Shown piece by piece: positions 18,936 through 61,490 of a stretch of 64,000 nt of DNA. The notes under the pieces are model-generated. The model was not told where the DNA came from and did no database searches. It saw only the letters and a program-made list of their open reading frames with translations. The first letter of the stretch is position 1, and the number at the start of each line of letters is the position of its first letter. This stretch comes from Candidatus Latescibacterota bacterium (lineage in GTDB: Bacteria; Latescibacterota; UBA2968; GCA-2709665). The position numbers and the translations under genes were made by a program. The DNA is taken from the NCBI GenBank assembly GCA_965219455.1, contig OZ244744.1, positions 992,001-1,056,000 of the forward strand. Direction: 5' to 3'.

Positions 18936-18968
18936 CCTGCCTGCAGCGCAGGGCACTGCGCAGGCTGG
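18936..18968. mobile_element. 33-bp CCTGCCT...GCAGGCTGG mini-palindrome inserted in a hairpin
   Basis: Removal restores the hairpin TCGAGGGCA-GGA-TGCCCTCGA. Confidence 0.65.
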
Positions 18969-19034
18969 TGCCCTCGATCCAGTCAGGACCCTCTGTCGTT
19001 CAGAATACCACCATCCATCGCGGAATAGAGACCC

Positions 19035-20666
19035 TTACAGCGGACACACCAGTTGTCCGTCCAGCAGTTTGTGATTTTCGGAATAGTCCACGGGCACTTC
19101 GATCAGGTGCACGCCACCGGACTCGAGGCACCCTTTGAGCAATCCGGCCATGTCGTCCGTTCGTTCCAGCCGGTGCCCCCCGGCGCCGTAGCTCTCAGCG
19201 TAGCGCACGAAATCGGGATTCCCGTAATCCAACCCGAAATCAGCCAGACCCATATGGGCCTGCTTCCATTTGATCATGCCATAGCCGTTGTCCCGCAACA
19301 CCAGCGCCACCAGGTTCAGGCCCAGGCGCACCGCGGTCTCCAACTCCTGTGAGTTCATCATAAAGCCGCCGTCGCCGCAGACCGCCACCACGTCACGATC
19401 CGGGTGGAGCAGGCTGGCAGCCATGGCGGAGGGCAGACCGGCGCCCATGGTCGCCAGGGCGTTGTCCAGCAAGACGGTATTCGGCTGGTGGGCGCGGTAG
19501 TTGAGCGCGAACCAAATCTTGTAGACACCGTTATCGAGGGCAATCAGCCCATCGTCGGGCAGCACGCTCCGCACGTCGGCCACCAGCCGCTGCGGCAGTA
19601 CCGGAAAACGGTCGTCGTCATCTCCGGCGGCCAACTTCCCGTCGGCCCACTCCTTCACTCGAATGAAATAGTCGAACGACCAGTGGGGCTGGGGCTCGAT
19701 CCGCTGGCAGATCTGCCACAGGCTGTTGCCGATGTCGCCGATCACCTCGAGTTGCGGAAAGTACACCGGATCGACCTCAGCGGAAGAAAAGTTGACGTGG
19801 ATGACGTAAAGGCCCCCATCCTGCATCAGAAAAGGCGGCTTCTCCACCACGTCGTGGCCCACGTTGATAATCAGATCGGCCCGCTCGATGGCGCAGTGAA
19901 TGGCATCGCCGGAAGACAGTGCCGCGTTCCCCATGTACAGCGGATGGCGCTCGTCCACCACGCCCTTGCCCATTTGCGTGTTGAACCAGGGTATGCCCGT
20001 TATGTCTATGAACCGGGCCAGCATATTTGACGTTCGCTTGCGATTGGCTCCTGCGCCCACCAGCAGCAACGGCCGGCGAGCATCCTCGATCATGGCGACG
20101 GCCCGTGCGACCGCCTTGGCCTCCGCCACCGGGCGCCGCACCCGATCTCGGGGATAGAGATGCGCCACCGCCTCCTCGGCCGCGATGTCCTCGGGCAACT
20201 CCAGGTGCACGGCTCCCGGTCGCTCCTCCTCCGCCATGCGGAACGCCTCCCGCACTCGCGGCGGAATGGTCGCGCCGCTGACAATTCGGGTGGTGTACTT
20301 CGTGAGGGGGCGCATCATCTCAACCACGTCCACGATCTGGAAGTGGCCCTGTTTGCTCGACTTGATGGGCTTCTGCCCCGTGATCATCAGCAGCGGCATG
20401 CCACCCAGCTGGGCGTACGCCGCCGCGGTTACGAAATTCGTCGCCCCGGGTCCAAGGGTGGACATGCACACCCCGGTCTTGCCGGTGAGGCGGCCGTACG
20501 TAGCGGCCATGAAGCCCGCCGCCTGCTCGTGCCGTGTGAGAATGACGCGAATGCTCGAATTGCGCAGCGACTCGAGCAGGTCCAGGTTCTCCTCGCCGGG
20601 GATGGCGAAGATAAATTCAACGCCTTCGGCCTCGAGGGCCTTTACGAAAAGATCTGAGGCTTTCAT
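19035..20666 (-). CDS. Acetolactate synthase large subunit (ThDP enzyme, no small subunit adjacent)
   Basis: IPGEENL, RHEQAAGFMA, GPGATN, GDGGFMMNSQELET...N ThDP motif. Confidence 0.92.
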   Translation of the reverse strand: MKASDLFVKALEAEGVEFIFAIPGEENLDLLESLRNSSIRVILTRHEQAAGFMAATYGRLTGKTGVCMSTLGPGATNFVTAAAYAQLGGMPLLMITGQKPIKSSKQGHFQIVDVVEMMRPLTKYTTRIVSGATIPPRVREAFRMAEEERPGAVHLELPEDIAAEEAVAHLYPRDRVRRPVAEAKAVARAVAMIEDARRPLLLVGAGANRKRTSNMLARFIDITGIPWFNTQMGKGVVDERHPLYMGNAALSSGDAIHCAIERADLIINVGHDVVEKPPFLMQDGGLYVIHVNFSSAEVDPVYFPQLEVIGDIGNSLWQICQRIEPQPHWSFDYFIRVKEWADGKLAAGDDDDRFPVLPQRLVADVRSVLPDDGLIALDNGVYKIWFALNYRAHQPNTVLLDNALATMGAGLPSAMAASLLHPDRDVVAVCGDGGFMMNSQELETAVRLGLNLVALVLRDNGYGMIKWKQAHMGLADFGLDYGNPDFVRYAESYGAGGHRLERTDDMAGLLKGCLESGGVHLIEVPVDYSENHKLLDGQLVCPL

Positions 20667-20817
20667 TGTATTCACACTCGCGGTGATACTTCTTGTCGCC
20701 CTAAACCCGGCTGGGCTGAAACATTGGTCAAAAAGATTCGGCCCCCTGGTCTTAGGAATAAGCCCAAGGAACCGAATTCATCCAAAATAATAAACTTCAA
20801 TTGACAAATCAACTTTA

Positions 20818-20850
20818 AAGCCCAGGGGCACATACTCCCCTGGGCTTCTT
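20818..20850. terminator. Hairpin at edge of low-GC island
   Basis: AAGCCCAGGGG-(8)-CCCCTGGGCTT perfect 11-bp stem. Confidence 0.45.
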
Positions 20851-20916
20851 CTATTGACAACGAAACATCAGACATTTAGACTTGCTAATCCACAACTTAT
20901 AGTGAAAGGAAAAGTA

Positions 20917-21453
20917 ATGATCACTGTCTTGCTCTTGCTACTAACAATTCAACCTGTTGAAGCTAAATCCAAAATGTCACAATTTCAGTTATACACCAAA
21001 TGTCTTGGGGTGCATCTCTCGATTGAAGAACTCCCAGACAATGCAGAGCGGATTAACTTAACAAAGGAACATATAACAAACATTGTAAAGAACAAATTAC
21101 AAGCGGCCCGGCTATATGTGCCCAGGAGATTTACGGTCCGCGAAACAGAGGACATCCATCCAATCTTATACGTTCAGGTTAATACATCCAAAACTGCTTT
21201 TAGTATTGGAATTGAATTGCGGAAAGTTGTGTTAGATAACTACTCCGGGTTGAAGGAATATGCAGTTACTTGGCGCATAGGTGTTCTTGGTGTGCACGGA
21301 CGAAGAAATCAATTTATCCTACGTATGGTCAATAAATATACGGATGTATTTATTAAAGAATGGCGCAAGGTCAACAAATCAGAGTGTCTTGAAAAAGAAG
21401 AAGTGGTTAAGCCAGGTCAAGGGCCTGTGCAACCACCTAAGAGAATTCGCTAA
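20917..21453 (+). CDS. Hypothetical secreted protein
   Basis: RBS AAGGA; signal-peptide-like N-terminus (LLLLLTIQPVEA); AT-rich. Confidence 0.6.
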   Translation: MITVLLLLLTIQPVEAKSKMSQFQLYTKCLGVHLSIEELPDNAERINLTKEHITNIVKNKLQAARLYVPRRFTVRETEDIHPILYVQVNTSKTAFSIGIELRKVVLDNYSGLKEYAVTWRIGVLGVHGRRNQFILRMVNKYTDVFIKEWRKVNKSECLEKEEVVKPGQGPVQPPKRIR

Positions 21454-21464
21454 GGGGAATCGTG

Positions 21465-22004
21465 ATGAATAATAAGACTCAACTAACGATTGTTCTATTC
21501 GCCATTGTCTTTACAAATTGTAGTTCAACCACCAGGGCACTTAAGGAGCCCCCGTAAATAAAGCCCGAGGAAATACGTTCAAGAAAATTGAAAAAGAATG
21601 ACAAGTGCTGGCAAAAGTTGGATAGTCCTGCTGATTGCTATTTGTATAGGACTAATCAGCCAGATAGAGATGAATCCTACATTTGGTCAGGTGCCTGCCT
21701 GGGCGGTGTGCCTCACGGAAAAGGAGTTCTTAACTGGATCTATCGCAATGCGCCCCCGTTCCCAGGAAATCCGTCAACAGTGATGGAAAGAACACATATA
21801 GGTCTTAAGCATTATGGTCAAAGACACGGTGAATGGTTTGAGGATGGTCACGATGGGAACTATGCAGCCAAAGAGCAGTATATATATGGAAAGCTGATAA
21901 GTCGTTTTATGCGAGGCAATGAGGGTTCTTGCACGGATGTTGTGTATGATTCTTCGGGAAAAGTGTTAGGTATCCGTAATAAAAATCCGATATTTTGTAA
22001 ATGA
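21465..22004 (+). pseudogene. Cys-rich lipoprotein with MORN-like repeat, in-frame stop
   Basis: MNNKTQLTIVLFAIVFTNC lipobox is in frame with ORF 21588-22004 but interrupted by TAA at 21555; WSGACLGGVPHGKG and GQRHGEWFE motifs. Confidence 0.6.
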
Positions 22005-22036
22005 TTCTCATCTATTGGGGGGGAGGAGGATCTATA

Positions 22037-22618
22037 ATGACAACTTCAGTTATTGGCATATTGGTAGGAACAGGGCTCTTTGTCGGTGGATTCGTTTTTC
22101 ACGATATAAACTACAAAGAGGGGGGCAGCGCCTATCATCTGTATGATGGACACAGTAGAAGGTATATTATAGGTTCACCTGTGAATAGTGGACGAGAAGA
22201 CCTGGCCTACGTTGCCGGAACAGTAGGGGCGGTCTGTTTGGCAATTTCTGTCAAACGTGCTTGGAATCAGCGTAAAGCCAAGTCACCGACAAAGTCAGAT
22301 CGGGCCTATGGAAAATTTCGCATAATGCATGACCTAATCACTGGCGGAACTTTGTGGATAGTTGGTGGAAATCTGCATGACTCTGTATGGAAAAATGATG
22401 GTCTCACAAGCACAAAAACCCTGGAAGACAATTATGGAGGGAGGGGATGGAGGCCATATCAAAACTGGAGTCATAACAAACAAGAGCACTTTGGCTACGT
22501 TCTTGGTTCCGTAGGCATGGCTTGGTTATCATTGTCAGCAAAACAAGCCTGGACTCAGTGGGAACCCCACCACCTTAACCGCGCCTATGAAAAATTTCGT
22601 GAAAGGGTTTCTCAATGA
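22037..22618 (+). CDS. Orphan membrane protein made of two internal repeats
   Basis: RBS GGAGGAGG; two units, each TM-HD...E.(L/F)(A/G)YV.G..G-TM...RAY.KFR. Confidence 0.6.
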   Translation: MTTSVIGILVGTGLFVGGFVFHDINYKEGGSAYHLYDGHSRRYIIGSPVNSGREDLAYVAGTVGAVCLAISVKRAWNQRKAKSPTKSDRAYGKFRIMHDLITGGTLWIVGGNLHDSVWKNDGLTSTKTLEDNYGGRGWRPYQNWSHNKQEHFGYVLGSVGMAWLSLSAKQAWTQWEPHHLNRAYEKFRERVSQ

Positions 22619-23195
22619 AAATCGCAATTCTTGGAATACTCATAGGAACCGGAATCTTTACCAGTGGATTTATTCATCACGACATTAACTATGACAGCGA
22701 CCTTTCCTGGAATGACGATACTCACGAAAATGTGGCTTATCTCGTCGGTACAGCAGGTGTAATCATCACAACAGTTGCCGTAAAGCATCTGCTGAATCAG
22801 TATAAGCCCAAAGTCCCGAAAGAACTGCGACCTCTCAGTAAGTATTCGCATCAGTAACCCTGCAACTGCTCATTGGATTGGGACTTTGGGAAAGCGGACT
22901 GTGGCTTCATGAAATGGGAGAACTAGACGATCAAATCAATATCATATATTATGACGGTAATATGTATCGCCACAAAGACCGCGACGACATCCGCGAGCAC
23001 CTGGGCTATTTCGTAGGTGCATATGGAACCACCCTTTTTACGCTTTCGGCTTATCAGATGTTGAGCGCCAAAGGGCCTCCCAAACCGGCCCAGGATCTAG
23101 ACCACGCTTTCGGGGCTTTCCGGGCCGGGCTTAACCGCCCGTCACTGAATGACCCTAAAACGTGGTCTAAGGCGCTCAGCCAGGCGAACAGGTAG
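22615..23195 (+). pseudogene. Paralog of the preceding two-repeat membrane protein, split by a 1-nt frameshift (ORFs 22615-22857 and 22878-23195)
   Basis: GILIGTGIFTSGFIHHDINY matches GILVGTGLFVGGFVFHDINY; adding one base near 22842 joins the ORFs (..SK-VFASVTLQLLIGLGLWESGLWLHE). Confidence 0.55.
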
Positions 23196-23449
23196 TAAGT
23201 AGAAAAAAAATACCCCCGGCCGGATACTTAGTCCGACCTTAGAAGCTAACACAAGGCCCAGGGGGGGAGCAAGTCACTATGTTAAAATTAAGTTGATGGA
23301 AGACGTGAGGAGACCGCCCAACACCCCTTCGTTTTTCGCCTTTCCTCACTTCTCTTCGCCATGGAGGCAGGCGCCACCGGGGTCAATTTGCCGTTCACGG
23401 TTACGATGTTTAAACAACCGGACGTTTATGCAATCTTGCCAGCCGCTCG

Positions 23450-24337
23450 TCAGTCCAACCGTTCCAGGAATTCGTCCAGCCACTCATCGGGGCCGCCGTG
23501 CCCCGCGAAACCCCTCTCCACGTCCTCATCGGTATGGCAATCGGATCCGCCCGTGGAGAACAGCCCGTGACGTTCGCAGTATTCCCGGTATTTCGCCGTG
23601 AACGCCGGCGGCACGCCGGGATGGGCGCATTCGATCCCGTCCAGCGAACACTCCAATCGCAGCGCATCCATCCGTTCCACGTTGTCTTCCTTGAAATAGC
23701 CGAACGGATGCGCGATCGCCACCAGCGCACCCGCCTCCTTGACCGCCGGCATCGCATCCTTCACGTGCGGATACGGCGGAAACCGCGTCGCCGCGCCCGC
23801 TCGCGCCATCAGATCCCCGTAGTCCTCGATCCGGTCGATGAATCCCCGCGCCACGCAGTACTGCTGGATCACGCCGCCCTTCACGTGAGTATTTCCCTGC
23901 ACGTCGACTGTCTTCGCGGGTCGATAGGACCCGAGCAGTTCCAACCGGTCCGCATCCGTAAAACCGTATCCAATCGCCTGCAGGCCGGTCGAAATCGCCG
24001 AGCCGTAGTCCCGCTGCCAGTCGTGATACGCATCAAGAACCTGCACCATCGCCGGGGGCAGAACCGCGGGAAAACCGTAACACAGCAAATCCACCGATCC
24101 GATCGACGTGGTCATCGTCAATTCGGCCGATGGCACGACGCGTATCTCCGGGTAGCGTTGCGAGATCTCCAGCACCTCCGGAAGCGAATCCAGCACGTGG
24201 TGGTCCGTAATGGCGAAGCAGGAGACCCCGAGTTCCCGGGCGCGTTTGAAATGGTTCTCCGGCTGCGCAAGAGCGTCATAGCTCCAGTACGTGTGCAGGT
24301 GCAGATCGTAACGTGCGGTCACCCCTTCGTTGGCCAT
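23450..24337 (-). CDS. PHP domain metal-dependent phosphoesterase
   Basis: DLHLHTYWSYD, AITDH, IAHP, TGGSDCH. Confidence 0.9.
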   Translation of the reverse strand: MANEGVTARYDLHLHTYWSYDALAQPENHFKRARELGVSCFAITDHHVLDSLPEVLEISQRYPEIRVVPSAELTMTTSIGSVDLLCYGFPAVLPPAMVQVLDAYHDWQRDYGSAISTGLQAIGYGFTDADRLELLGSYRPAKTVDVQGNTHVKGGVIQQYCVARGFIDRIEDYGDLMARAGAATRFPPYPHVKDAMPAVKEAGALVAIAHPFGYFKEDNVERMDALRLECSLDGIECAHPGVPPAFTAKYREYCERHGLFSTGGSDCHTDEDVERGFAGHGGPDEWLDEFLERLD

Positions 24338-24353
24338 TGATTTGTCCCTTGTT

Positions 24354-25676: not shown

Positions 25677-25686
25677 CGCTGGTCCC

Positions 25687-39910: not shown

Positions 39911-39970
39911 GCGCCTTATTTGGTGTCCTGTCCCGAAAATATCTCCCCATTCTCCCGCCCATTCATCCCG

Positions 39971-40003
39971 CCTGCCTGCGCCAAGCACCGCGCGGCAGGC
40001 AGG
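39971..40003. mobile_element. 33-bp CCTGCCT...GCAGGCAGG mini-palindrome
   Basis: Removal gives TTCATCCCGTCTCGC, the exact reverse complement of 61431-61445. Confidence 0.75.
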
Positions 40004-40191
40004 TCTCGCAGCGTCGCTTGCGCTGCTGGTGCTGCTTGCACTGAGCTTGTCGAAGTGGCCCGTCAAAGCAAGCTTGTCGAAGTGCCCTCGCTCGCCGACC
40101 ATGCGCAGGTCGCCTGTTGGCGGACAAACACCCTTTGGAACTAACCTCCTGGGAAACAAGGGCTTTACCTCTCCCACCAACTTTCATTTTC

Positions 40192-40412
40192 TCTTCGTCC
40201 TTTTTCTTGTACGCCCAAGAAAAAGGACCAAAAAGAACGACGCCGCTCGGCGCGGGGCCGGTTTTTCCACGAATCTCGTCAGTGGCGTAGGCAAACGACT
40301 GTGCCCTGCGTGTGCATTCGTCCCCACTGTGTTTCGGTGCTGAACGGATTAACGTGGAAAAACCCCCAGCACCACCACGGGACGGTGGAGAGGTGGATCT
40401 GAACGGACCGCC
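40192..40412 (+). repeat. Structured ~220-nt dispersed element, copy A
   Basis: CCTTTTTCTTG-N-CAAGAAAAAGG hairpin and GGTTTTTCCACG...CGTGGAAAAACC stem; homologs at 49047 and 61116. Confidence 0.8.
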
Positions 40413-40456
40413 GTGGGGTGTGGCGTGTTTCCGCAGTATTGTGCTTGCTTTGTTCT

Positions 40457-40548
40457 GCTCCCCCTCTCCCCTTGGGAGAGGGGGCCGGGGGGTGAGGGTC
40501 TCCCGTCTCACCGCCTTTAGGAGAGGGGCTGGCGGGAGGGGTCACAAT
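40457..40548. repeat. CCCCTCTCC...GGAGAGGGG REP-like repeats
   Basis: Palindromic purine/pyrimidine hairpin; reverse-complement match at 60745-60790. Confidence 0.7.
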
Positions 40549-40681
40549 CTGCGAATTGATACCGCCAGGCCATATCGATATTCTGTGGACGCGGTGTGGT
40601 CGTCTCCCGTCTACCCTCTAACGTCTCACCGTCTTTGGCTGATAGCTGATCGCTGCTTTTCTCCGGCCGAATTCAGGCAAC

Positions 40682-41497
40682 CTATTTTCGGGACAGAACA
40701 CTCGCCTTCGGGGGCAGCGGCCACGTCTCGCCCGCCATGAATCCGCCGTCCACGTAGATGTGCTGGCCCGTTACGTAATCCGACGCGGCGGATGCGAGGA
40801 ACACCGCGGTTCCCACGAGGTCGTCCGGGATACCCAGGCGCCCGGCAGGGGTCCGACCTTCGCCCCATTCCCGCATCGTCGGGTCGGACCATAACTTTTC
40901 CGTTAGAGGCGTCAGAATAAATCCGGGACAGATCGCGTTCACCTGGATATTGTGCGGTCCCAGTTCCAGCGCCTGCGCTTTGGTCAACTGACCCACGGCC
41001 CCCTTAGTGGCGGTATACACCGAAACGCCGTGTAACGCGATTCCGGTTGTCAGGGAGCCGATATTGATGACTTTGCCCTGCCTTCGAGGGATCATGTGCC
41101 GGGCGGCCATCTGTGTCAGAAAATAGAGTCCCTTCAAATTAACCGCCATAATCCGATCGTAATGTTCCTCGGTGACCGCGTCCAGCGGCTCCCGGATATT
41201 CATCCCCGCGTTGTTCACCAGAATGTCCAGTTGCCCATAGTGCGCGCAGGTTGTCTCCATCCCCCGCTTGACGGAGTCCAGGTCAGCCATATCCATTTCC
41301 ACAGCCAGGGCGTCGCCTCCTGCCGCTTCGATCGCCGCCACGGTTTCGTCCAGTTGCGAACGGGTCCTCGCCGCGCAGACACACCGGGCGCCGTGCGCCG
41401 CCAGGCCCTTCGCGACGCCCTGCCCGATCCCCCTTCCGGCGCCCGTCACCAGCGCGACGCGCCCTTCCAGAGAAAACAGATTCAACTCATGCTCCAT
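40682..41497 (-). CDS. SDR oxidoreductase (gluconate 5-dehydrogenase/KduD-like)
   Basis: TGAGRGIG, NNAG, YTATK, VNAICPG, VDGG. Confidence 0.9.
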   Translation of the reverse strand: MEHELNLFSLEGRVALVTGAGRGIGQGVAKGLAAHGARCVCAARTRSQLDETVAAIEAAGGDALAVEMDMADLDSVKRGMETTCAHYGQLDILVNNAGMNIREPLDAVTEEHYDRIMAVNLKGLYFLTQMAARHMIPRRQGKVINIGSLTTGIALHGVSVYTATKGAVGQLTKAQALELGPHNIQVNAICPGFILTPLTEKLWSDPTMREWGEGRTPAGRLGIPDDLVGTAVFLASAASDYVTGQHIYVDGGFMAGETWPLPPKASVLSRK

Positions 41498-49046: not shown

Positions 49047-49270
49047 TCTTCGTCCTTTTTCTTGTACGCCCAAGAAAAAGGACCAAAAAGAACGGCGCCG
49101 TTCGGCACGGGGCCGGTTTTTCCGCGAATCTCCTTAGTGGAAACAACTGGAAATTGTGTGCCCTGCAAACTCGTAAGCCGTTCCAGTACCACAGTGCTGA
49201 ACGGATCAGCGCGGAAAAACCCCCCACCCCGCCACCGGTCGCGTGGAGGGTGGAACCCTTGAATGGGCGC
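49047..49270 (+). repeat. Structured ~220-nt dispersed element, copy B
   Basis: First ~85 nt nearly identical to copy A; GGTTTTTCCGCG...CGCGGAAAAACC stem. Confidence 0.8.
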
Positions 49271-49272
49271 AC

Positions 49273-49410
49273 GTAGGGGCGGTTCGCGAACCGCCTGCCT
49301 CGCCTGCGTCAGCAGGCAGGCCCCTACAAGAACCAGACATCCGTGATATTTTTGTCACTGTGACGCGCGGCTGCGTTGTATTTGTAGGGGCAACCCTTGT
49401 GGTTGCCCGC
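49273..49410. repeat. GTAG-type REP palindromes (first one interrupted)
   Basis: GTAGGGGCGGTTCGCGAACCG^CCCCTAC at 49273-49327 and GTAGGGGCAACC-CTTGT-GGTTGCCC at about 49384. Confidence 0.75.
49294..49320. mobile_element. 27-bp CCTGCCTCGC...GCAGGCAGG mini-palindrome
   Basis: Removal restores a perfect 28-bp REP palindrome. Confidence 0.8.
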
Positions 49411-50911: not shown

Positions 50912-50939
50912 GCGCTTATGAATCGACTGGCGCGCGCCC

Positions 50940-51470
50940 TCAGTCGTCCTCTAACTTGAAGTGTATCGGGATCACGAGCCAGACCTTAACGGGCCGATCG
51001 CTTTGACGGGCCGGCTCAAACAGAAACTTGCGCACCGCGTCTTCGGCCGATTTCCGGAAGATTTCCTCGCCCTTCAACATCCGGACACTCTCCGCTTTTC
51101 CGTCTTTGCCAAGAAGCACTTTCAACATGACGGATCCCTCCAGGCCCGCCTGATCAGCCTCGGCTTCTGCTCCACTTTCCACACGTCCAGGATTTCCTCC
51201 TCTTCGAAGGGAGCTAGTTCGCCTCCTGCAGGCGGGGGCGGAGGCGGCAGGTTCACGGGTACGTCTTCCAGTTCAAGATCGGTCGTCTCGATCGTCACGT
51301 CGTCCGGGACGTCATCGCTTTCGGTCTCGATGGGCAAAGCCGGGCGCGGCGGGGGCGGACGTGTGATCTGCTGGGTCTCGGGAAGGTCCTCAATCTGAAT
51401 CACGATCTGTTCCGGTTTGGATGTCGTAGCCTGAATATCCAGGGTTGGAAACAGAACGGCGATTACGGCA
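50940..51470 (-). pseudogene. TonB paralog, 5'-truncated and frameshifted
   Basis: Two ORF pieces match 55409-56179; an internal deletion removes the LPVYPQFALRA segment near 51145; N-terminus missing next to IS630. Confidence 0.85.
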
Positions 51471-51588
51471 GGCAACCCCCGCCTTTGCTCCGCCTCTCCC
51501 GTGGGACCTACCCCCTACTACTGACCCCCCTCCTTAATCAAAGCATAAAATACTTGACAATTCGGGTTGATATGCTTATATCGTCTGT

Positions 51589-52650
51589 ATGGCACAAAGA
51601 GATGCGAGATCGCTGTCGGCACAATCGCAAGAGGACCTGCGACATCGTGTGATTCAAGCCGTGACCGAAAAAGGGGTCACTCAGGTGCAGGCCGCCCGGT
51701 TGTTTGGTGTGTCGCGCCAGGCGATATACACGTGGCTGACGCGGTATAGAGCAAAGGGAGACAAAGGGCTGGCATCCAGGCGTCGAGGCCGTCCGTCGCA
51801 ACCCAGGCTGAAAGCGGCGCAGGCGCGTGTGGTGCAGCGCTTCATACGGGACCGGTGTCCGGATCAGCTCAAGTTGCCGTTCGTGTTGTGGACCAGAGAA
51901 GCGGTCCAGCAATTGATCGCCGATCGGATGGGTGTGCAGGTCTCGGTCTGGACGGTGGGGCGGTATTTGAAACGTTGGGGCTTCACCCCGCAAAAGCCGC
52001 TGAAGCGTGCGTATGAGCGCGACCCGGACGCGGTGGCGCGGTGGCTGGAGACAGAATATCCGCAGATCCGTGAGGAAGCCAGGAAGGAGGATGCCACGCT
52101 GTGGTGGGCAGACGAAATGGGCATGCGCATGGACGATCAGGGCGGGCGCAGCTACAGTATGAAAGGGCACACCCCCGTGATTCCGGGCAGTCTGCCTCGC
52201 CTTGCTCAGCAGGCAGGCGGTCAACGCGCTCGCTGCTCGATGATGTCGGCCATCACCAACCGAGGCCAGCTTTGCTTCCACGTGTTCAGAGGCCAGCTCA
52301 ACTCGAACGTGTTCATTGACTTCTTGCGCCGTCTCAAGCGGCAATCTGAACGAAAGCTCTTCGTGATCGTGGACCGACATCCTGTCCACCGCTCCGAAAA
52401 AACGCAAAAGTGGATCGACAAACACGCGGCCAAGGTCCGCCTCATCTTCCTGCCCGCCTACAGCCCGGACCTCAATCCCGATGAGATGCTCAACCAGGAT
52501 GTGAAATCCAACGCCGTTCGCACAAAGCGCCCTCCAACGCTTCAACAGATGATGGACAACGTCCGCGCTTACCTGCGCGGCAGACAACGAAAAAGGGCCA
52601 GCGTAAAACGCACCTTTCATGCCCCTTCCGTACGCTACGCCGCGCTCTAA
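51589..52650 (+). CDS. IS630 DDE transposase
   Basis: HTHs, WGFTPQKP, WADE, IVDRHPVH, LPAYSPDLNPDE. Confidence 0.95.
   Translation: MAQRDARSLSAQSQEDLRHRVIQAVTEKGVTQVQAARLFGVSRQAIYTWLTRYRAKGDKGLASRRRGRPSQPRLKAAQARVVQRFIRDRCPDQLKLPFVLWTREAVQQLIADRMGVQVSVWTVGRYLKRWGFTPQKPLKRAYERDPDAVARWLETEYPQIREEARKEDATLWWADEMGMRMDDQGGRSYSMKGHTPVIPGSLPRLAQQAGGQRARCSMMSAITNRGQLCFHVFRGQLNSNVFIDFLRRLKRQSERKLFVIVDRHPVHRSEKTQKWIDKHAAKVRLIFLPAYSPDLNPDEMLNQDVKSNAVRTKRPPTLQQMMDNVRAYLRGRQRKRASVKRTFHAPSVRYAAL
52191..52217. mobile_element. 27-bp mini-palindrome inserted in frame in the transposase
   Basis: TCTGCCTCGCCTTGCTCAGCAGGCAGG; removal gives TPVIPGSGQR, like typical IS630 TPVxxxTGQR. Confidence 0.75.
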
Positions 52651-52839
52651 TTGTGTCAACTATTTAACGCTCCCTGTAATAAACAAACCAGACCTCCTTT
52701 AATCCTTTCCCAAAAATACGACACCACTCTACCGCCGATTCATCCCGTCTCGCGGCGTCGCTTGCACTGCCTGGGCCAGGCTTGTCGAAGGGTCGAAGGG
52801 ATACGAAACGGTCCGAAAGTCTTCTTCCTTTAAATCGCA

Positions 52840-52871
52840 AAATGACAGGCAGCCTTCACTGCCTGTCATTT
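52840..52871. terminator. Hairpin / intrinsic terminator
   Basis: AAATGACAGGCAG-CCTTCA-CTGCCTGTCATTT perfect 13-bp stem. Confidence 0.65.
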
Positions 52872-53295
52872 ATTCGGTCCCAACCAGACGGGGCGGAACA
52901 TCCTGACCGGCGAGTCGCGGGCTAACCGGAAATCTGGAAAAGACCGTCGCCGGATATCGGTACAGTTGATTCGTCAAACGCGTTATAAATGGCGCAGAAA
53001 GAGCGCCGGGCGCAACCGTATCGGAATCCCTGACGTCCGTCAGGTCATTACGGCTCAAAACGATAGACCACGGGCAACTGCGCCGGGTCTACGACGCTCG
53101 TATCCGTGTGGTGGTAGATGTTCACACGCCCGGTGCCGCAGTCTCCGAACCCGTCACAGGTGAGTTCGCCGATGAGACCCGGAAGGCCCGCCGCGCTGAG
53201 CAGAGGCGACGCCGATGGCGATCTTTGCCGGCAGACCGCCGGGCGACAGCGGGGTCGCGCCCGTTACACTATCTCAGTAGGGGCCATAGATTGGC

Positions 53296-54432
53296 TTACT
53301 TGAAGACTTCAAAGGCACCGTTCCGCACCTTCAGCACAATGGGATTGTAAACCGCGTCGCCATCGGGATTGAACGAGAAACGCCCCAGAATCGTATCGAC
53401 CTCCCGGGTATTGATCATCGCGCGTTTGATCGCACTCGCGTCCATCGATCCAGTTTCCGCTATTGCTTTGGCGAGAACAACCAGCGAGACGTAAGAAATC
53501 GCGCCCCATGGATGCGGTTCATAGCCGTACCTGGCGATGTAATTTTCAACGAAGGCCTGGTTCCCAGGTGTGGAAGCGTTGCTTGCCCAACTCAATACGG
53601 AAATCGCGCCTTCGGCGGCGTCGCCCGCTTTCTTAACTTCGGTCAGGGACAGTTCAGGTATGATCATAGGAATCATTGAAGTGATGCCAACCTCACGGGC
53701 GTTGACCAGAACTTGAATCATCTCCGCCGCCAGACACGAGACAAACACGGCATGTGGCTTCAAAGCCATTATTCTGCTCAGCTGGTCGGCAAACGAGGTG
53801 TCGCCCGTTGCAAAAGTCTCCCTTGTCAGAATCTGGACCTCGTTCTCGGCCAGGGCGTTGCGCAATTCCTCGTCCAAGCTGCGGGAATACACGTCGGTCG
53901 AATCGACCATAATCGCCACTCTTCGATACCTCAGTTTCTCCTTCGTACCCTTGACGGCGCCTGGAGCGAGCGTGCCAACGTTGAGGCCTGTGCGGAAGAT
54001 ATAGTCGCCGATCGCGCTCAGGCCGACGGCGGTCGATGTCGAACTTAAAGTCAGAACCTCGCTCTGTTGAGCGATCGGAAACACCTCCTTCGCCACGGTG
54101 GAAATACCGGGACCCAGGATGACGGACACACCGTCCTCTTTGATAAGTTTATTGAACGCTTTCGTGGCGGCATCAACCGTGCCTCGGGAATCCTCCATGA
54201 TGAACTCGATGTTTGAGCCTCCGAGTATCGATGAACCGTTGATTTCTTCAAGTGCGAACTGGAAGCCTTCCCACGCCGGCGCGCCGTATAAAATCTGCGG
54301 GCCGGTCAGCGGGAGTGCGACGCCGATCTCGATCTTTTCGGGCAGACCATCTGCAACGCAGCCCCAGCTCACGGCTGCGACGAGCGAGAAAACGAACAGA
54401 CTGCGAATCTTGGTAAACAAGGCTGACCCCAT
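53296..54432 (-). CDS. LivJ/LivK-like ABC substrate-binding (lipo)protein
   Basis: SWGC lipobox-like, IGVALPLTG, ALEEIN, IGDYIFR, GRFSFNPDGD. Confidence 0.9.
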   Translation of the reverse strand: MGSALFTKIRSLFVFSLVAAVSWGCVADGLPEKIEIGVALPLTGPQILYGAPAWEGFQFALEEINGSSILGGSNIEFIMEDSRGTVDAATKAFNKLIKEDGVSVILGPGISTVAKEVFPIAQQSEVLTLSSTSTAVGLSAIGDYIFRTGLNVGTLAPGAVKGTKEKLRYRRVAIMVDSTDVYSRSLDEELRNALAENEVQILTRETFATGDTSFADQLSRIMALKPHAVFVSCLAAEMIQVLVNAREVGITSMIPMIIPELSLTEVKKAGDAAEGAISVLSWASNASTPGNQAFVENYIARYGYEPHPWGAISYVSLVVLAKAIAETGSMDASAIKRAMINTREVDTILGRFSFNPDGDAVYNPIVLKVRNGAFEVFK

Positions 54433-54735: not shown

Positions 54736-54740
54736 TATCA

Positions 54741-55222: not shown

Positions 55223-55349
55223 TGAGACGCAAGACGTGAGAGATCCCCTGCCGCGTCCGGTTTCATTTTGTGCCGGAGGCATAAAGGAAAAACCAATCGG
55301 GCAAGGACGTCGTCTACCGTCTAACGTCTTACCTCTACCCTCGAACACA

Positions 55350-55380
55350 CGACGGGCTCCGGTTTTTCCGGAGCCCGTCG
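55350..55380. terminator. Terminator hairpin downstream of tonB
   Basis: CGACGGGCTCCGG-TTTTT-CCGGAGCCCGTCG; homologous to 50883-50911. Confidence 0.65.
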
Positions 55381-55408
55381 TGTGTTCGTATCGGCTGACG
55401 CGCCGCTC

Positions 55409-56179
55409 TCATTCCTCAAGCTTGAAGTGAATCGGAATCACGAGCCACACCTTGACGGGCCGATCGCTTTGGCGCGCCGGCTCGAACAGGAACTTGCGCA
55501 CCGCGTCTTCGGCCGATTTCCGGAAGATTTCCTCGCCCTTCAACATCCGGATACTCTCCGCTTTTCCGTCTTTGCCAAGAAGCACTTTCAACATGACCGA
55601 TCCTTGCAGGCCGGCACGCAGCGCGAACTGAGGATACACCGGCAACGCCCTCCTCAGCAGCCTGGGCTTCTGCTCCACCTTCCAGACTTCCAGAATCTCC
55701 TCTTCTTCGAAGGGAGCCTCTTCGCTTCCTGCCGGCGGGGGCGGCGGCAGATCCACTGGTACGTCCTCCAGTTCGAGATCGGTCGTCTCGATCGTCACGT
55801 CGTCTGGAACGTCTTCGCTTTCGGTCTCGATCGGCACGGCCGGACGGGGCGGTGGCGGCGGACGGCTGATCTGTCGGGTCTCAGGAAGATCCTCTATCTG
55901 AATCACAATCTGATCGGGTTTGGAAGGTGTGGCCTGAATGTCCAGGGTTGGAAACAGAACGGCGATTCCAGCATGAACCGCCGCGGAGATAACGAACGAA
56001 AGACCCAGAACCTTCCGGTACCGCCGCTTCAGATCCGCCTCGGAATTCTTGTCCCGTTTCTCCACCTGGATTCCCGTCCGCCGATCCGCCAGGAGCAGCT
56101 CAAAACGCTTGCGTCGATCTCGCAGAGCGGCCAGATTCGACAGTATTGAACCGTCAAACCGTTGCAGCACGAACTTCAT
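55409..56179 (-). CDS. tonB: Energy transducer TonB
   Basis: TM with SAAVH (S-x3-H), Pro-rich linker, YP..A..AGLQGSV, FEPARQ...VKVW..IPIHFKL; RBS GAGGGG. Confidence 0.9.
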   Translation of the reverse strand: MKFVLQRFDGSILSNLAALRDRRKRFELLLADRRTGIQVEKRDKNSEADLKRRYRKVLGLSFVISAAVHAGIAVLFPTLDIQATPSKPDQIVIQIEDLPETRQISRPPPPPRPAVPIETESEDVPDDVTIETTDLELEDVPVDLPPPPPAGSEEAPFEEEEILEVWKVEQKPRLLRRALPVYPQFALRAGLQGSVMLKVLLGKDGKAESIRMLKGEEIFRKSAEDAVRKFLFEPARQSDRPVKVWLVIPIHFKLEE

Positions 56180-56546
56180 CTGATCCCCCTCACGATAATT
56201 CCACTAAACCACCGTGAAAACCGTCCCTTATGAATGTAGATCCGAAATGTTACGGATCGGTTACGCAAATATTGCGATTCTGTAACCTCCGGAGACGAAC
56301 CGACATCGCGCCGTGAATCCTGTGTATCTTTTCGACGTCGAAATTTTCCACTTCGTTCCAAAACCCGAACTTCGTCCCTCCCTGTACCAGGGCTAAGAGG
56401 ACGGGGCGGCGCCGGGTGGACCCTGAGGTCCGGCCCCGGTTTATTTTCGTTTTAAATGACGACCCCCAATCGTATACTTAATATCCGTACACGTAGTATA
56501 CTTATATTTGCACTTAACATGAATAAAAAAACGGGAGGTATTGCCC

Positions 56547-58874
56547 ATGAACTCGACGATTCGATGGGGCATCGGCGGCGCCGGAGGCGCTTATTTTCTG
56601 GCTACGCCGGGTGAACTCGTAATCGACCTACTTAAACGCGACCGCAACGTCCACAACCGCCGCACGGATCTGCGCGCGCTTCTGATAACGCCCGACCGGA
56701 AGGTTGTACAGGAGGTTACCTTGCCGGACACCGGCCCCGGCGACGGCGCCGGCCCGCTTCAACGGGCCCGGCTGTCCACGCACGTCAACCACAAGGGCAT
56801 CTATAAACTCAACGTCACCATCTCCCAGGACAGATACGGCGAGGAGATCGTCTGGGCGTTTCGAACCAACTGCAAGCGTTACCTCGTCGAGACTTCCCGC
56901 GGCCACAAAGACGCCGCGCACCAGGAACCCATCGTCCTGCTCTCGCCGGAGTATCCCGGCGACGTCTGCTTTCTTCCTCCCGAAGGCGCGTTTTCCGTTG
57001 AAATCGGAGACCTGCCCGACACCGTGGAAACGCTGCCGGTGTTCGACGCTTCAGGGAGCCTCGTTGATACCCTGACTGTTCAGGGCGGACGCGCCACCCA
57101 TACGTTCACCGGGCACACTCACCGGTCCGCACCCTGGCGTCTCCACCTGCCCGCCCAGCAAGCCGTAATCCACGTCGACGGGGTCACGCGCTGGTCCGAT
57201 GACGATCCGCACGCGAACATGTCCTACTGGACCCCGCACCTGGATTCTTTCTTCCCCCTCCACCCCTGCCGCTGGCTTCTGACGCCCTACAACAGGAACC
57301 TTTACGTCCGCCCGGGCGAGTCAGGAGCGGTCGACTTCCGGGTCCGGAACCATTCGTGCAGCCCGCAGACCGTGCGCCTGGCGCCCGAATACGACGAGGA
57401 CGCGGCCTTTCCCGTCCGGCTCTCCGAGGACACCTTCGATCTCCGCCCAATGGAAAGTGCCGGCGTCACCGCCCGCTACAGCATGCCCGATACGGCAGGC
57501 GAAAGTGAAATTCTAACGTGCCGACTGCGGGCGACTTCCGAAAAACATCCTGAAGTGTCCACGTATTCAACGCTGACGCTCAGGGCCGGAACTTCACCCG
57601 TCCGGCGTGCCATCAGACTGCCCCTGGTGTTGAAACCCTATGAACACGAGAACGCACAGTTCGGCTATGTACCCGACTGTCCCGTGGAGAATCAGATCTA
57701 CTTCGGCCTCGACAACCGGCCCTTCGTACGGACCGAAACTGGTATCACCGCGTTGCGGGACGGTCGCTGGACGACGTCCGACTTCAGAGATTCCGTCCGG
57801 GACTTTGAGAACGCCGCCTTTGGAACCGCGTCCACCAAGATTGCCTTCGATGCCAAGAATTTACTATATCTTGTGGCCAATGTCAATGGTCAACCCAACC
57901 TGCTGTATTCCACCGATCACGGCCTTACTTTCTCCGCGTGCGCTATTCCCGGAAAAGAAAGATTTCCGCTCACTTTTGATATCGAATGGTTTACGGGTCA
58001 TAACACGTGCGACGGTCCGCCGCCCCTCCTTCGTTACGCCCGCACTGGAGAAGATGTACTTCATTTCTGGCGGAAAGTCAACGACCTCGAACTCTTTCTG
58101 CCGGAGAAAACGTCCGGGGGGCTCTCGATAGGTCGTCCGATTCTCGTATCAGACAATTGTATCGGCCTCTCACAGCACTCGGGTATTCCCGCCTCGGTGG
58201 TCTCGAAGCACGGGAAGGTGCACGTCATCTGGGCGGAAGCGACCGATCCGGACGAAGACGTCCCCGGCGTACCGACCTACGTCGCCACCATCGACAGAAA
58301 GACGCGGCAAATGAGCCCACCCGCGCTGGTCGGCTACGGACCGCCCGCAAACGACATCCACAATTCACCCAGCATCACCATGGACAGCCAGGGTTATCTT
58401 CACGCCCTGTCGGGTACCCACGGTTGTCCCTTCCCGTATTCCCGTTCACTGGCCCCCAACACCGCGGGCGGCGGCTGGTCCGAGCCTGCAGACGCCTGGC
58501 CGGATGCACGCCAGACCTACATCGGCTTCGTCTGTGATCCGGAAGACACGCTTCACTCCGCCTTCAGGCTCTGGTGGAACGGCACCGGCTACTTTCCTGC
58601 CGGCAATTACGCGACCCTCGCGCATCAGCGACGCCCTGCGGGCGGCTCCTGGCAGGAACCGCGGGTGCTTGTCGTGCCTCCGTTCTCGGAATACAGCGTG
58701 TTCTACCACCGCCTCACCATAGACCGTATCGGGCGGCTCTTCCTCTCGTACGACACCTTTTCCACCTACTGGTTCTATCGGAATGACCACCAGGGAAGCC
58801 GACGCTCGCTGATGATGTCCGATGACCGCGGAAGTAGCTGGAAGCTGGTGGAAACGTCCGATCTGGCCGGGTGA
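56547..58874 (+). CDS. BNR/Asp-box repeat beta-propeller protein with Ig-like domains
   Basis: YSTDHGLTF and MSDDRGSSW Asp-boxes; DIHNSPSITMDSQGYLH (BNR_4-like). Confidence 0.75.
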   Translation: MNSTIRWGIGGAGGAYFLATPGELVIDLLKRDRNVHNRRTDLRALLITPDRKVVQEVTLPDTGPGDGAGPLQRARLSTHVNHKGIYKLNVTISQDRYGEEIVWAFRTNCKRYLVETSRGHKDAAHQEPIVLLSPEYPGDVCFLPPEGAFSVEIGDLPDTVETLPVFDASGSLVDTLTVQGGRATHTFTGHTHRSAPWRLHLPAQQAVIHVDGVTRWSDDDPHANMSYWTPHLDSFFPLHPCRWLLTPYNRNLYVRPGESGAVDFRVRNHSCSPQTVRLAPEYDEDAAFPVRLSEDTFDLRPMESAGVTARYSMPDTAGESEILTCRLRATSEKHPEVSTYSTLTLRAGTSPVRRAIRLPLVLKPYEHENAQFGYVPDCPVENQIYFGLDNRPFVRTETGITALRDGRWTTSDFRDSVRDFENAAFGTASTKIAFDAKNLLYLVANVNGQPNLLYSTDHGLTFSACAIPGKERFPLTFDIEWFTGHNTCDGPPPLLRYARTGEDVLHFWRKVNDLELFLPEKTSGGLSIGRPILVSDNCIGLSQHSGIPASVVSKHGKVHVIWAEATDPDEDVPGVPTYVATIDRKTRQMSPPALVGYGPPANDIHNSPSITMDSQGYLHALSGTHGCPFPYSRSLAPNTAGGGWSEPADAWPDARQTYIGFVCDPEDTLHSAFRLWWNGTGYFPAGNYATLAHQRRPAGGSWQEPRVLVVPPFSEYSVFYHRLTIDRIGRLFLSYDTFSTYWFYRNDHQGSRRSLMMSDDRGSSWKLVETSDLAG

Positions 58875-58888
58875 AGGGATTACTCGCG

Positions 58889-60640
58889 ATGGCAGAGAGA
58901 AAGTTTCGCAGGAATGAACCGATCAGTGAAAACGCATCTGCGAGTAATGCCGAAATCTGCAAGGCAGCGGGCTCGGGCGACCTGGATCGTGTACGGTCTA
59001 TTCTGAAGCAGAAACCCGAACTCGCCTGCCGGGACGGAATACAGGGCTATCAGGCCATACACCACGCGGCGAGGGAGGGTCACATGGAGGTGGTCAGGCA
59101 CCTTCTGACGGCTGGCGCCAGCCCGACCCGGATAACCTACCGGGAGCGCGTGTCCGCCATCGATATGGCCAGGCACCACGGGCATACCGAAGTGGCCGAA
59201 GCGATGGAAGAATGGCGGTCCCAACACTCGGGTGAATCAGAAACAGGGATCCAGCTCTGCCAAGCCGCCGGCAGCGGTGATATTGAAGGCGTGAGGGAAC
59301 TGCTTGACACGGACCCTTCCGGGATACACTCGGTGAACAGGAGCGGCGACACGGCGCTGCACGCAGCCGTGGAAAACCATCGTATCACGGTGGTCGAGGA
59401 ACTCCTGGACCGGGGCGCCGATCCGAATCGATCCAACGCGCGGGGCAAAAAGCCCATCCATCTCACCTTCGGGCCTCGGCTCAAACGTGGTTGGGACCCA
59501 CCTCCGAGCCCGTTGTGGCCGGTCATAGGCGGTCTTCTGTTGGGACGGGGCGCAGAATACGATCTTTGGGTTGCGTGCGCAATCGGCGACGTCGACCGGG
59601 CGCGGGAAATCCTCGATGCCGATCCCGGGGCCGTAAACGATTGGTCCCGAAACTATCCCGGCATGGACGCCTATCCGATCACGATTGCCGCGGAGAAGGG
59701 CCACCACGAAGTTGTGCGCCTCCTGTTGGAACGGGGAGCGGATCCGGACACGCCATATGACAAGGACGAGGGATACCGCGTGGCGGAGCAAGGCGCCCCT
59801 CTGCATGCCGCGGCAGCCAACGACGATTTGCAGTTGGCGACACTGCTTCTGGCGCACGGGGCATCGGCACATACCGTGATGGATGCGTCCGGCAATGCAT
59901 TCAACCTGGCGATCTCCAACGGGAACGATGCGATGGAAAAACTGCTTTTGCGACACGGCGCATTTCCCGGGTATGACAACGCGATCACTCCAGGATTCTA
60001 TGCACAGCACAGTGACAATATCACTGTCGATGCAGCGCTCGTTAAATCCGATCCCTCGTGTGTCAAGGACGTTCTGAAAGGGGCCGTCCACGGCGGCCAT
60101 CCGGATCTCGTGGACCTCTGCCTCTCACGGAATCCGGGTTTTACGGAAAGCGAAATGCATGACGTGCTGTGCCTGGCAATGCGGGTGTGGCGGCTCCGGT
60201 GTCCGAGAAAACCGGGCGATGCGCGCGTGGAACACTTCTACGCCTGCTTCGAACTCCTTTTGGATTGCGGATTCGATCCGAACGCCCGCGCGAAGGAAGG
60301 CGGCTTGACCCCCCTTCATTGGACCGCGGAAATCACCTGGCACGTCAGCGAGCAGGATCGAATCGTTTTCGCGCAAAAGCTGCTGAACCACGGCGCCGAG
60401 ATAAGCGTGCTGGGCGGAGAAAGACAGTCGACGCCGCTGGCAATGGCAGTACGCTACGAGTGGCCCGAGCTTGCCAGGTTCATGCTGGAAGCGGGCGCCG
60501 ATCCGAATCTGGCGGGTGCGCAATGGGCGACACCACTGGCCTGGAGTGAGAAACCGCAGGGCCATAAGGAATATGAACGACTCGACTCGAAAGAAGCCGA
60601 TATGGGCGCTTTGCTGAGGAGATATGGCGCAAAGAAATAG
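58889..60640 (+). CDS. Ankyrin repeat protein
   Basis: Repeated TALHAA..G...VV..LL..GADPN units throughout. Confidence 0.92.
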   Translation: MAERKFRRNEPISENASASNAEICKAAGSGDLDRVRSILKQKPELACRDGIQGYQAIHHAAREGHMEVVRHLLTAGASPTRITYRERVSAIDMARHHGHTEVAEAMEEWRSQHSGESETGIQLCQAAGSGDIEGVRELLDTDPSGIHSVNRSGDTALHAAVENHRITVVEELLDRGADPNRSNARGKKPIHLTFGPRLKRGWDPPPSPLWPVIGGLLLGRGAEYDLWVACAIGDVDRAREILDADPGAVNDWSRNYPGMDAYPITIAAEKGHHEVVRLLLERGADPDTPYDKDEGYRVAEQGAPLHAAAANDDLQLATLLLAHGASAHTVMDASGNAFNLAISNGNDAMEKLLLRHGAFPGYDNAITPGFYAQHSDNITVDAALVKSDPSCVKDVLKGAVHGGHPDLVDLCLSRNPGFTESEMHDVLCLAMRVWRLRCPRKPGDARVEHFYACFELLLDCGFDPNARAKEGGLTPLHWTAEITWHVSEQDRIVFAQKLLNHGAEISVLGGERQSTPLAMAVRYEWPELARFMLEAGADPNLAGAQWATPLAWSEKPQGHKEYERLDSKEADMGALLRRYGAKK

Positions 60641-60744
60641 ACAGGAGAGAGAAAATCGGTATGGCCGACCAGAAGCAGCAGAAACAGCGTAGAGCTATCA
60701 GCAGTCCGCTTGAATCAAAAACCAAATCAGTTGACGTCATTGTC

Positions 60745-60900
60745 GTGACCTCTCCCCCCGGCCCCCTCTCCTAAAGGAAAGGGGGAGACTGGCGTTGACC
60801 CGTAACTATAAGTCGCGTGGATTCTTTAACTGTCGATATGTCTTCAACGGTTGTCCGTTCCTCCTTCCTTCAGGAAGGGGGAAAGGCGGTAGGTCTCGCC
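60745..60900. repeat. CCCCTCTCC...GGGGGAG REP-like repeats
   Basis: Reverse complement of the motif at 40513-40548, plus a degenerate second copy. Confidence 0.6.
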
Positions 60901-61115
60901 CTCACTCCCATCCAGTCCGGGTAGAGGAGGCATTGTTCGCAGCGTCAGACGCGCCGCTCACCGTCAAGCTCGAACGCCAGAACCACGCGTGACCTGAAGG
61001 CACGAAAAATCGCCGGTACAACAGGTCACCCGATACGCGGGCGGAGGCGGATTCTCTGCGCTCAAACGTCCAGCATTATTATTGTACAGGAAAAGCATGT
61101 AATTTACATACAAAA

Positions 61116-61343
61116 GCCGTTCACCCGCTCCTTCGTTTCACCGCTCGCGCGAACGGTCTGGGAATATGGGGGTTTTTCCGCGTTTTTCCGTCCAGCACAG
61201 CAGTACTGGTACATCTGACGGGCTCGTAGGTCGCCCAGACGCCATTTTGTCCTTTAGGGGATTCGCGGAAAAACCGGCCCCGTGCCGAGCGGCGCCCTTC
61301 TTTTTCGCCCTTTTTCTTGGGCGATGCAAGAAAAAGGGCAAGG
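61116..61343 (-). repeat. Structured ~220-nt dispersed element, copy C (inverted)
   Basis: Reverse complement has CCTTTTTCTTG-N-CAAGAAAAAGG, GCGCCGCTCGGCACGGGGCCGGTTTTTCCGCGAAT and CGCGGAAAAACCCCC. Confidence 0.8.
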
Positions 61344-61380
61344 GAATAAGGGACGTTAGGGGGTGGCGAGATGCGGTTGC

Positions 61381-61490
61381 TTCGGCAAGCTCAGTGTAAA
61401 CACTTCGACAAGCTCAGCGCAAGCAACGTCGCGAGACGGGATGAACCGGCCTGCCTGCTGAAGCATGCGAGGCAGGCGGATGAATGGTGA
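61381..61490. repeat. CTTCGACAAGCTCAG repeat plus tail, homologous to 1118-1180
   Basis: Aligns to 1118-1180 apart from a 27-bp insertion. Confidence 0.8.
61450..61476. mobile_element. 27-bp mini-palindrome (inverted)
   Basis: Reverse complement CCTGCCTCGCATGCTTCAGCAGGCAGG; empty site GAACCGG^CGGATGAATGG present at 1158-1175. Confidence 0.85.

Follow-up and report, generated by a model that had tools for sequence, protein, structure and literature searches.

Ultra-small hairpin insertion elements in the genome of a Latescibacterota bacterium

Here we describe a family of very small insertion elements in a Candidatus Latescibacterota bacterium, starting from five copies in a 64,000-nucleotide stretch of its genome (the window; contig OZ244744.1, positions 992,001 to 1,056,000). 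The comparisons below give good support to the view that this family is real, and that it belongs to a rare and mechanistically unsolved kind of mobile DNA. In essence the initial annotation is upheld, while what it proposed on junctions, lengths and a liking for hairpins has to be amended. At every site for which an empty counterpart could be found, the elements arrived by insertion. They are probably best understood as ultra-small (25–36 bp), non-autonomous insertion elements—each a single imperfect hairpin—that are mobilised in trans. The genome of this window, G000, is a single contig (C1) of 5,844,228 bp with 58.3% G+C; related genomes are called G001 and so on.

All five copies named in the initial annotation were verified by reading the sequence. 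Two of them are 33 nt long. One, at 18936-18968, has a single mismatch in its right end (AGGCTGG) and sits in a host repetitive extragenic palindromic (REP) hairpin at the junction of the loop and the 3' arm, with host parts TCGAGGGCAGGA at 18924-18935 and TGCCCTCGA at 18969-18977; the element itself folds as a DNA hairpin of -11.8 kcal/mol. The other, at 39971-40003, occupies "site B" (GCGAGA^CGGGATGAA in the minus-strand reading, where ^ marks the point of insertion) of a miniature inverted-repeat transposable element (MITE) copy at about 39923-40702, which derives from an insertion sequence (IS) of the IS630 family; an insert of this type is found in that MITE position at 5 further loci of the genome. 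The three remaining copies are 27 nt long: one at 49294-49320 lies in the 3' arm of a GTAG-type palindrome (host parts 49273-49293 and 49321-49327), one at 52191-52217 lies in frame on the plus strand of an IS630-family transposase open reading frame (ORF) of 353 aa (51589-52650, plus strand), and one at 61450-61476 occupies "site A" (GATGAAYCGG^CGGATGAATGG) of an IS630-derived MITE. The copy in the transposase encodes LPRLAQQAG and has one mismatch in its left end (TCTGCCT); the other four carry no strand assignment. A relaxed rescan of the window recovered the two one-mismatch copies and no other convincing one.

Chance does not account for these copies. The window contains three exact CCTGCCT-N-AGGCAGG matches, whereas 100 shuffles predict 0.01; the genome contains 47 exact pairs of the 7-nt ends, with length peaks at 27 nt (18) and 33 nt (16); and CCTGYCTG-N11-17-CAGRCAGG matches G000 60 times, compared with 0 for the same pattern read backwards. 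The genome-wide scan that had been proposed as a check on the initial annotation returned a family with sharp length peaks and not a random distribution. The conserved arms described there are present, but their length of 7 nt was an underestimate—the real end spans 8 nt, CCTG[C/T]CTG and CAG[G/A]CAGG, followed by Y and then S. Loci with exact ends number 81 in G000, representing 41 flanking-sequence classes and 50 distinct element sequences (0 for the reversed-pattern control); allowing up to one end mismatch gives 116 merged loci, some of the one-mismatch ones looking like chance. All 10 of the 10 copies that were folded form DNA hairpins in which the conserved ends close the stem and, in most cases, a bulge of 1-2 nt lies under a variable upper stem.

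The clean excision first claimed for the five window copies holds for each of them, and every restored sequence matches a real, uninterrupted sequence. Joining the flanks of the 61450 copy gives GAACCGGCGGATGAATGG, found uninterrupted at 1158-1175 on the plus strand, where a further, degenerate member of that MITE family has its site A unoccupied; joining those of the 39971 copy gives the reverse complement of GCGAGACGGGATGAA at 61431. The 28-nt palindrome restored at 49294 is uninterrupted elsewhere in the genome, in 2 exact copies and 10 with at most three substitutions, and the 49294 copy is the sole interrupted one found among the genomic copies; the repeat region that surrounds it is missing at the syntenic place in G011. 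At 18936, the orthologous hairpin TCGAGGGC(A/G)GGATGCCCTCG is intact in both G011 and G013. Exactly the 9 residues added at 52191 are absent from 13 of 13 database IS630 homologues, which are ~59-94% identical (344 vs 353 aa). The G016 homologue shares the 27-mer and carries an extra 30-mer at AACGCCGT^TCGCA, where G000 has no insert.

Filled and empty states can also be compared at genes and repeats outside the window. The gene for hypoxanthine phosphoribosyltransferase (hpt) in G000 contains 30 nt, CCTGTCTG...CAGGCAGG, in frame in its N-terminal part, and precisely these nucleotides are missing in 14 of 14 same-genus genomes. One of these is G011, with an Hpt that is 91% identical. When genome contigs were searched with Hpt, the best segments were at most 60% identical among the matches listed. 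In G015, which belongs to another genus, nested CCTGTCTG-type pieces cluster in hpt near the place of the G000 30-mer, in the loop before the conserved LILxGxLKGA block; this cluster is an independent colonisation of the same protein loop.

A tetratricopeptide repeat (TPR) gene shows several states of the same locus: it is empty in five genomes (G002, G004, G006, G007 and G008), contains a 33-mer alone in G013, and in G000 contains the 33-mer with a 36-mer in its loop at CCGGACA^CGGCGCAGG, for a total of 69 nt in frame; in G009 and G001 the 33-mer holds other nested material. The G000 locus at 1653321 is filled in G000 and G011 and empty in G013. A further example is a group-II-intron-like multicopy repeat, whose G000 copy (C1, about 1664650-1665650) carries three inserts of 33, 27 and 25 nt, compared with none in four copies in G011 and G013; on the opposite strand, the end of the G000 copy reads like the 5' end of a group II intron. 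The claim that insertion proceeds without target duplication is borne out at every site with an empty counterpart: removal of the element restores the empty sequence base for base, and restored and empty sequences differ by ordinary substitutions only. Polymorphism between filled and empty states at orthologous loci, which the initial annotation had asked for, is present at hpt, at 18936, in the TPR gene and at 1653321.

The sites of insertion are biased in sequence. Of the 41 flank classes, 30 have G immediately before the element and 27 have C immediately after it; G^C together occurs in 18 of 41 classes against 8.3% expected (p ~1e-9, where the classes are partly non-independent and the p-values generous), and YG^CR in 10 of 41 against 2.1%. 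Read outward, the flanks begin with CGC, CGG or CAG on 40 of 82 sides. The earlier rule that all junctions are R^Y has to be abandoned—known-empty sites include A/G^G, T^T and C^C, and the actual bias is for G at -1 and C at +1.

Some places have received elements more than once. The MITE site just upstream of the right end (GATGAAYCGG^CGGATGAATGG) is filled in 36 of 163 cases and empty in 127, and the inserts at the 36 filled right ends, of 27, 33 and 36 nt, represent at least five centre types that are unrelated to one another. In the TPR gene, the loops of resident elements have been struck again by later elements. One and the same 27-nt subfamily is found at the identical IS630 codon position in G000 and G016, which represent non-sister lineages, and closer relatives of each are without it. 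In a maximum-likelihood protein tree, the G000 IS630 groups with homologues P0003, P0004 and P0006 (support 100/99) and that of G016 with P0008 (92/88); forcing the two into one clade costs 80 log-likelihood units (approximately unbiased test, p 0.001). Two gains would produce this pattern, as would several precise losses or recombination between IS copies. The preference for hairpin repeats that was suggested at the outset is confounded by hitch-hiking, as with the G016 33-mer, which lies in one larger repeat, and with the MITE copies of G000.

Lengths are more varied than the 27 and 33 nt first described, and elements of 25, 26, 28, 30, 31 and 36 nt are also present. Among copies with exact 8-nt ends there are 11 of 27 nt, 15 of 28 nt, 7 of 30 nt, 26 of 33 nt and 16 of 36 nt, with a few of 25, 26, 31 and 37 nt. 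The suggested restriction to multiples of 3 survives as a tendency, seen in 40 of 50 distinct sequences, but not as a rule, since the 28-mers account for 15 copies. All six of the six coding examples are 27, 30, 33 or 36 nt long, and the 28-mers, like the 25-, 26- and 31-mers, lie in non-coding carriers. We infer that the excess of multiples of 3 is due to selection acting on elements that frequently insert into coding DNA, and not to a mechanistic rule. In four of the five coding inserts whose translations were read, the reading phase is C/CTG/CCT/G..., giving peptides that resemble LP...QAG. That the elements are tolerated in ORFs is confirmed by hpt, the IS630 transposase and the TPR gene; an hsdS gene and a WD40 gene also contain them, as seen without homologue comparison.

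Most of the copy number arises from hitch-hiking in larger mobile repeats, mainly the IS630-derived MITE family, to which the hosts of window copies 39971 and 61450 belong. This family has ~150 copies in the genome (298 terminal-repeat matches were counted), and its forms are modular, ranging from a minimal ~55 bp to several hundred bp, with TA-like flanks. The IS630-family element at 51589-52650, the sole full-length copy in the genome, has ends that match the terminal repeats of these MITEs, and this element (window 51400-52800) is apparently the parent of the family; PF13358 is among the Pfam domains of the IS630 transposase homologues. The composite insertion at 60670-61505, which holds the 61450 copy, is absent in G011, and the window's own MITE and IS630 are missing at the syntenic places in that genome. 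Of eight MITE loci of G000 that were fetched, three with a hairpin were examined; all three MITEs are absent from G011 and G013. A recent burst of MITEs is suggested because these three copies and the window copy are absent from a close relative, G011. The sole full transposase ORF carries the 9-aa hairpin insert despite this suggested burst. Carriers are not confined to MITEs of G000: the dominant 33-mer of G016 lies within one larger repeat in 20 of 20 sampled copies. Another carrier repeat, of the form …GTCATCCTGAGGA…[hairpin]…GACGAAGGATC…, is found in G000 at C1:62850-63500 and 1844400-1845050, as direct pairs 377-378 bp apart that each hold a 28-mer; 31-mers occupy the same slot in other copies.

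The family is patchily distributed. Among 30 relatives, the number of matches ranges from 0 to 178 per genome within one genus and family, and the dominant centre varies from genome to genome. In a scan of 168 genomes of the phylum, only two families, both in one order, reach high counts; a few genuine-looking copies occur outside these families, such as 6 in G037, and the control pattern stays at 0-1. Read support was judged from assembled contigs of public runs: a 5-kb stretch within the window is covered to 0.89-0.97 by six runs from two studies. The 52191 insert is spanned by one contig of run X12 (52025-54022, 4 differences, no gap). Contigs end at the repeats containing 49294 and 61450, so that these two copies are neither supported nor refuted. 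In run X1, a contig joins 48378 to 52540 with 99 other letters between them, as in G011. A run X12 contig also has 30 extra letters of the CCTG-element type at window 49097-49099, for which a polymorphic insertion and a paralogous copy of a repeat are both possible sources.

In the explanation that we favour, the conserved CCTG[C/T]CTG and CAG[G/A]CAGG form the base of the stem, below the usual bulge, and the upper stem and loop vary. A copy enters between two adjacent bases, neither duplicating nor losing target bases, as seen at the empty sites; G^C flanks are favoured, some places are struck repeatedly, later copies nest in the loops of earlier ones, and in-frame copies persist in genes. 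A trans-acting protein may read the 8-bp basal stem of an extruded or single-stranded hairpin, cut at the stem base and rejoin the unit into its target, in the manner of HUH/Y1 enzymes on REPs or on the ends of IS200/IS605 elements. We are led to this cut-and-rejoin step by the combination of an invariant 8-bp stem base, a variable top, a bulge, exact boundaries and the lack of duplication.

No mobilising enzyme is evident in the window, as had been noted, the sole transposase-like gene identified in the portion of the ORFs scanned being that of IS630. Several results weigh against the favoured explanation. Comparing matches to the Y1 transposase profile in G000 and its relatives linked no enzyme to the elements, and these matches are discordant with copy number: none is found in G007 despite its 101 copies, or in G012 with 20, and G021, with 62 copies, has fragments only. 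In G000 itself, PF01797 (Y1) gives two partial-profile matches, to a REP-associated tyrosine transposase (RAYT) and to a segment of a DUF1156 protein. The RAYT (C1:1922865-1923599, minus strand; NF047646, 97.7 bits vs a cut-off of 80) has an HVH (HUH) motif and a tyrosine region. The initial annotation had proposed looking for such a gene flanked by the motif; no CCTG-type element lies at the RAYT loci of G000, G011 or G013. These loci are instead flanked by GAGGGCAGGATGCCCTC hairpins—the same hairpin that hosts the element at window 18936—with several on both sides in G000, in a REPtron-like arrangement. A long element with CCTG-type terminal repeats was also sought in G000 and no real one was found. 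IS608-type single-strand transposition would predict an orientation bias relative to the replication strand, and the asymmetric copies have none (17:19 vs 12:7, p 0.39). To these points must be added the non-independence of the flank classes, the openness of the two-lineage IS630 pattern to IS-copy recombination or precise losses, and the unique-site copy at G000 2752405, where the spacer differs in all relatives and hence gives no filled/empty score.

The nature of the mobiliser can be approached by weighing what these results say of each candidate. It is possible, if somewhat doubtful, that the mobiliser is something other than Y1/RAYT or a catalogued transposase—an unrecognised hairpin-specific nuclease-ligase, or host replication or repair that reads the 8-bp basal stem. 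If this were true, the hairpins would stand apart as a separate class of minimal mobile DNA, with lengths in multiples of 3 that adapt them to the colonisation of coding sequence, and nested growth would build larger repeats. We regard it as unlikely that the elements are another REP family mobilised by the genome's RAYT. G000 does encode a RAYT with the HUH motif and tyrosine region, RAYT-like matches occur in most high-copy genomes (G000, G001, G009, G011 and G016), and REPs are themselves 20-40-bp hairpins that lack target duplications and sometimes lie in genes, according to passages of PMC3733652; however, it is a different hairpin that flanks the RAYT in G000, G011 and G013, the elements lack the unpaired GTAG or CGTC tag, their copies are mainly single and not inverted pairs, and G007, G012 and G021 have no intact Y1 match. 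A 199-aa Y1-like gene in G001, near two elements, was considered and rejected: it has its own GTAG hairpin, and the duplicated unit around it is not bounded by elements.

A process with no dedicated enzyme, in which host replication or repair places the copies by template switching or by capture of excised hairpins at nicks or breaks, appears quite improbable. It would suit the lack of a co-distributed transposase, the blunt insertions without duplication and targets that are heterogeneous except for the G^C bias; against it, the 8-bp end does not vary among 50 distinct sequences, nor between genera, and recurs sporadically in the phylum, which argues for sequence-specific recognition, boundaries are exact at all tested sites, and the same sites have been struck repeatedly. 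Hardest of all to credit is that the hairpins are immobile internal modules of MITEs or other repeats and that the "empty" sites arose by precise deletion of palindromes. Hairpins are prone to deletion, many copies do lie in carrier repeats, and the modular MITE family includes both short and long forms. However, hpt is filled in G000 alone among 15 same-genus genomes; the filled state is also rare and derived at the 18936 REP, the TPR gene, the IS630 ORF and the intron-like repeat; and none of these five hosts is a MITE. These sites already contradict such a reading.

We found no earlier description of the CCTGYCTG family in a literature search that left most subscription journals and supplements outside its reach. 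The closest analogue is the small dispersed repeats (SDRs) of cyanobacteria, the likeness being one of behaviour. SDR4-6 of Nostocaceae, reportedly described by Elhai et al. in 2008, are said to be dispersed hairpins of under 40 nt whose outer parts are conserved and whose core varies; reportedly 21-27 nt long, they nest in one another as well as in genes and other repeats. We know of no target duplication at SDRs and of no transposase for them. Both kinds are thus tiny nested hairpins that enter genes without duplication, but they differ in sequence family and in phylum, and the present elements are longer (25-36 vs 21-27 nt); the scan of the phylum indicates that the host is not a Nostocaceae cyanobacterium. 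The G^C target bias and the largely IS630-MITE-borne copies are features of the present elements, unlike SDRs. HIP1 may be an insertion site of SDR5, which would be a palindromic preferred target, according to part of PMC5861425.

REPs and REPINs (inverted REP doublets) share with the elements an imperfect palindrome of 20-40 bp, the lack of duplication, a patchy copy number and occasional copies in genes, as far as passages of PMC3733652 and PMC3116915 describe them. The elements are indeed short imperfect palindromes repeated in the genome. Their ends are paired CCTGYCTG/CAGRCAGG with no unpaired GTAG/CGTC end tag, and the flanks hold only G at -1 and C at +1; no RAYT flanked by the same repeat was seen in G000, G011 or G013. 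Inverted doublets at a fixed spacing are likewise lacking—109 loci include 13 clusters of two or more within 4 kb, and their spacings are irregular.

IS200/IS605 elements use two different subterminal hairpins, insert 3' of a fixed tetra- or pentanucleotide and show a strand bias; the present elements, in contrast, have one hairpin, a mere G^C bias and no strand bias. Common to both, and to the palindrome-associated transposable elements (PATEs), are a hairpin and the lack of target duplication. Portions of PMC6006769 describe IS200/IS605 mobility as hairpin-dependent, without target duplication or terminal inverted repeats, and carried out by a Y1 HUH enzyme on single strands. No IS200-type Y1 TnpA of the kind expected for PATEs was found in G000, where PF01797 gave just the two partial-profile matches, and neither the flank classes nor the orientation comparison (p 0.39) revealed a fixed upstream word or a replication-strand orientation. 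Like MITEs moved by DDE-type enzymes, the elements are inverted repeats, but no target-site duplication is present at the known-empty sites.

Rickettsia palindromic elements (RPEs), of ~100-150 bp, lie in frame in protein-coding genes. They resemble the present elements as palindromic in-frame genic inserts and differ in being several times longer, in an unrelated taxon and of unrelated sequence; a gene interrupted by RPE-1 is mentioned in a passage of PMC3733652. In yeast mitochondria, mobile GC-rich palindromic clusters are short hairpins that spread within the genome, according to part of PMC4478555, and they have the short GC-rich hairpin in common with the present elements but differ in their organellar, eukaryotic setting. 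For integron attC sites the comparison is structural. An attC site is an imperfect hairpin with conserved boxes at the stem base, a variable centre and extrahelical bases; it is 57-141 bp long, lies at the ends of cassettes in arrays and recombines through IntI. The present copies, unlike attC sites, are dispersed singly and show no attC-type array features, in an analysis that included no search for IntI.

To our knowledge, mobile DNA of less than ~40 bp has been argued for in detail only in the case of the cyanobacterial SDRs, for which no mechanism is known. SDR-like behaviour is now seen in another phylum, where housekeeping genes and others offer clean pairs of filled and empty sites, and the elements rank among the smallest mobile DNA observed outside cyanobacteria. 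A comparative panel is ready, with many single-contig genomes of one order holding from 0 to 178 copies each, and makes a search for the enzyme and the target rule directly testable. Annotation must reckon with 9-23 residues that the elements add to a protein, often as LP...QAG, and nested insertion inflates and diversifies MITEs. Raw copy counts can mislead because most copies ride in larger repeats.

Two further loci of G000 are described here in their own right. The DUF1156 protein is encoded by a 1220-aa ORF with DUF1156 and methyltransferase matches (C1, about 1910352-1914014, minus strand), its Y1_Tnp-like segment covering residues 309-384; the ORF adjoins genes for an SNF2 helicase and an AAA ATPase in a defence-type neighbourhood, and similar long frames are present in G009, G011 and G016. 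The interval 5034965-5038314, a candidate for a long element, was rejected as an artefact of two inverted IS copies that flank a DUF262-like gene. The whole structure, at C1:5034051-5039228, is a composite transposon in which two inverted 1662-nt IS copies, encoding a 448-aa transposase, surround a 599-aa gene.

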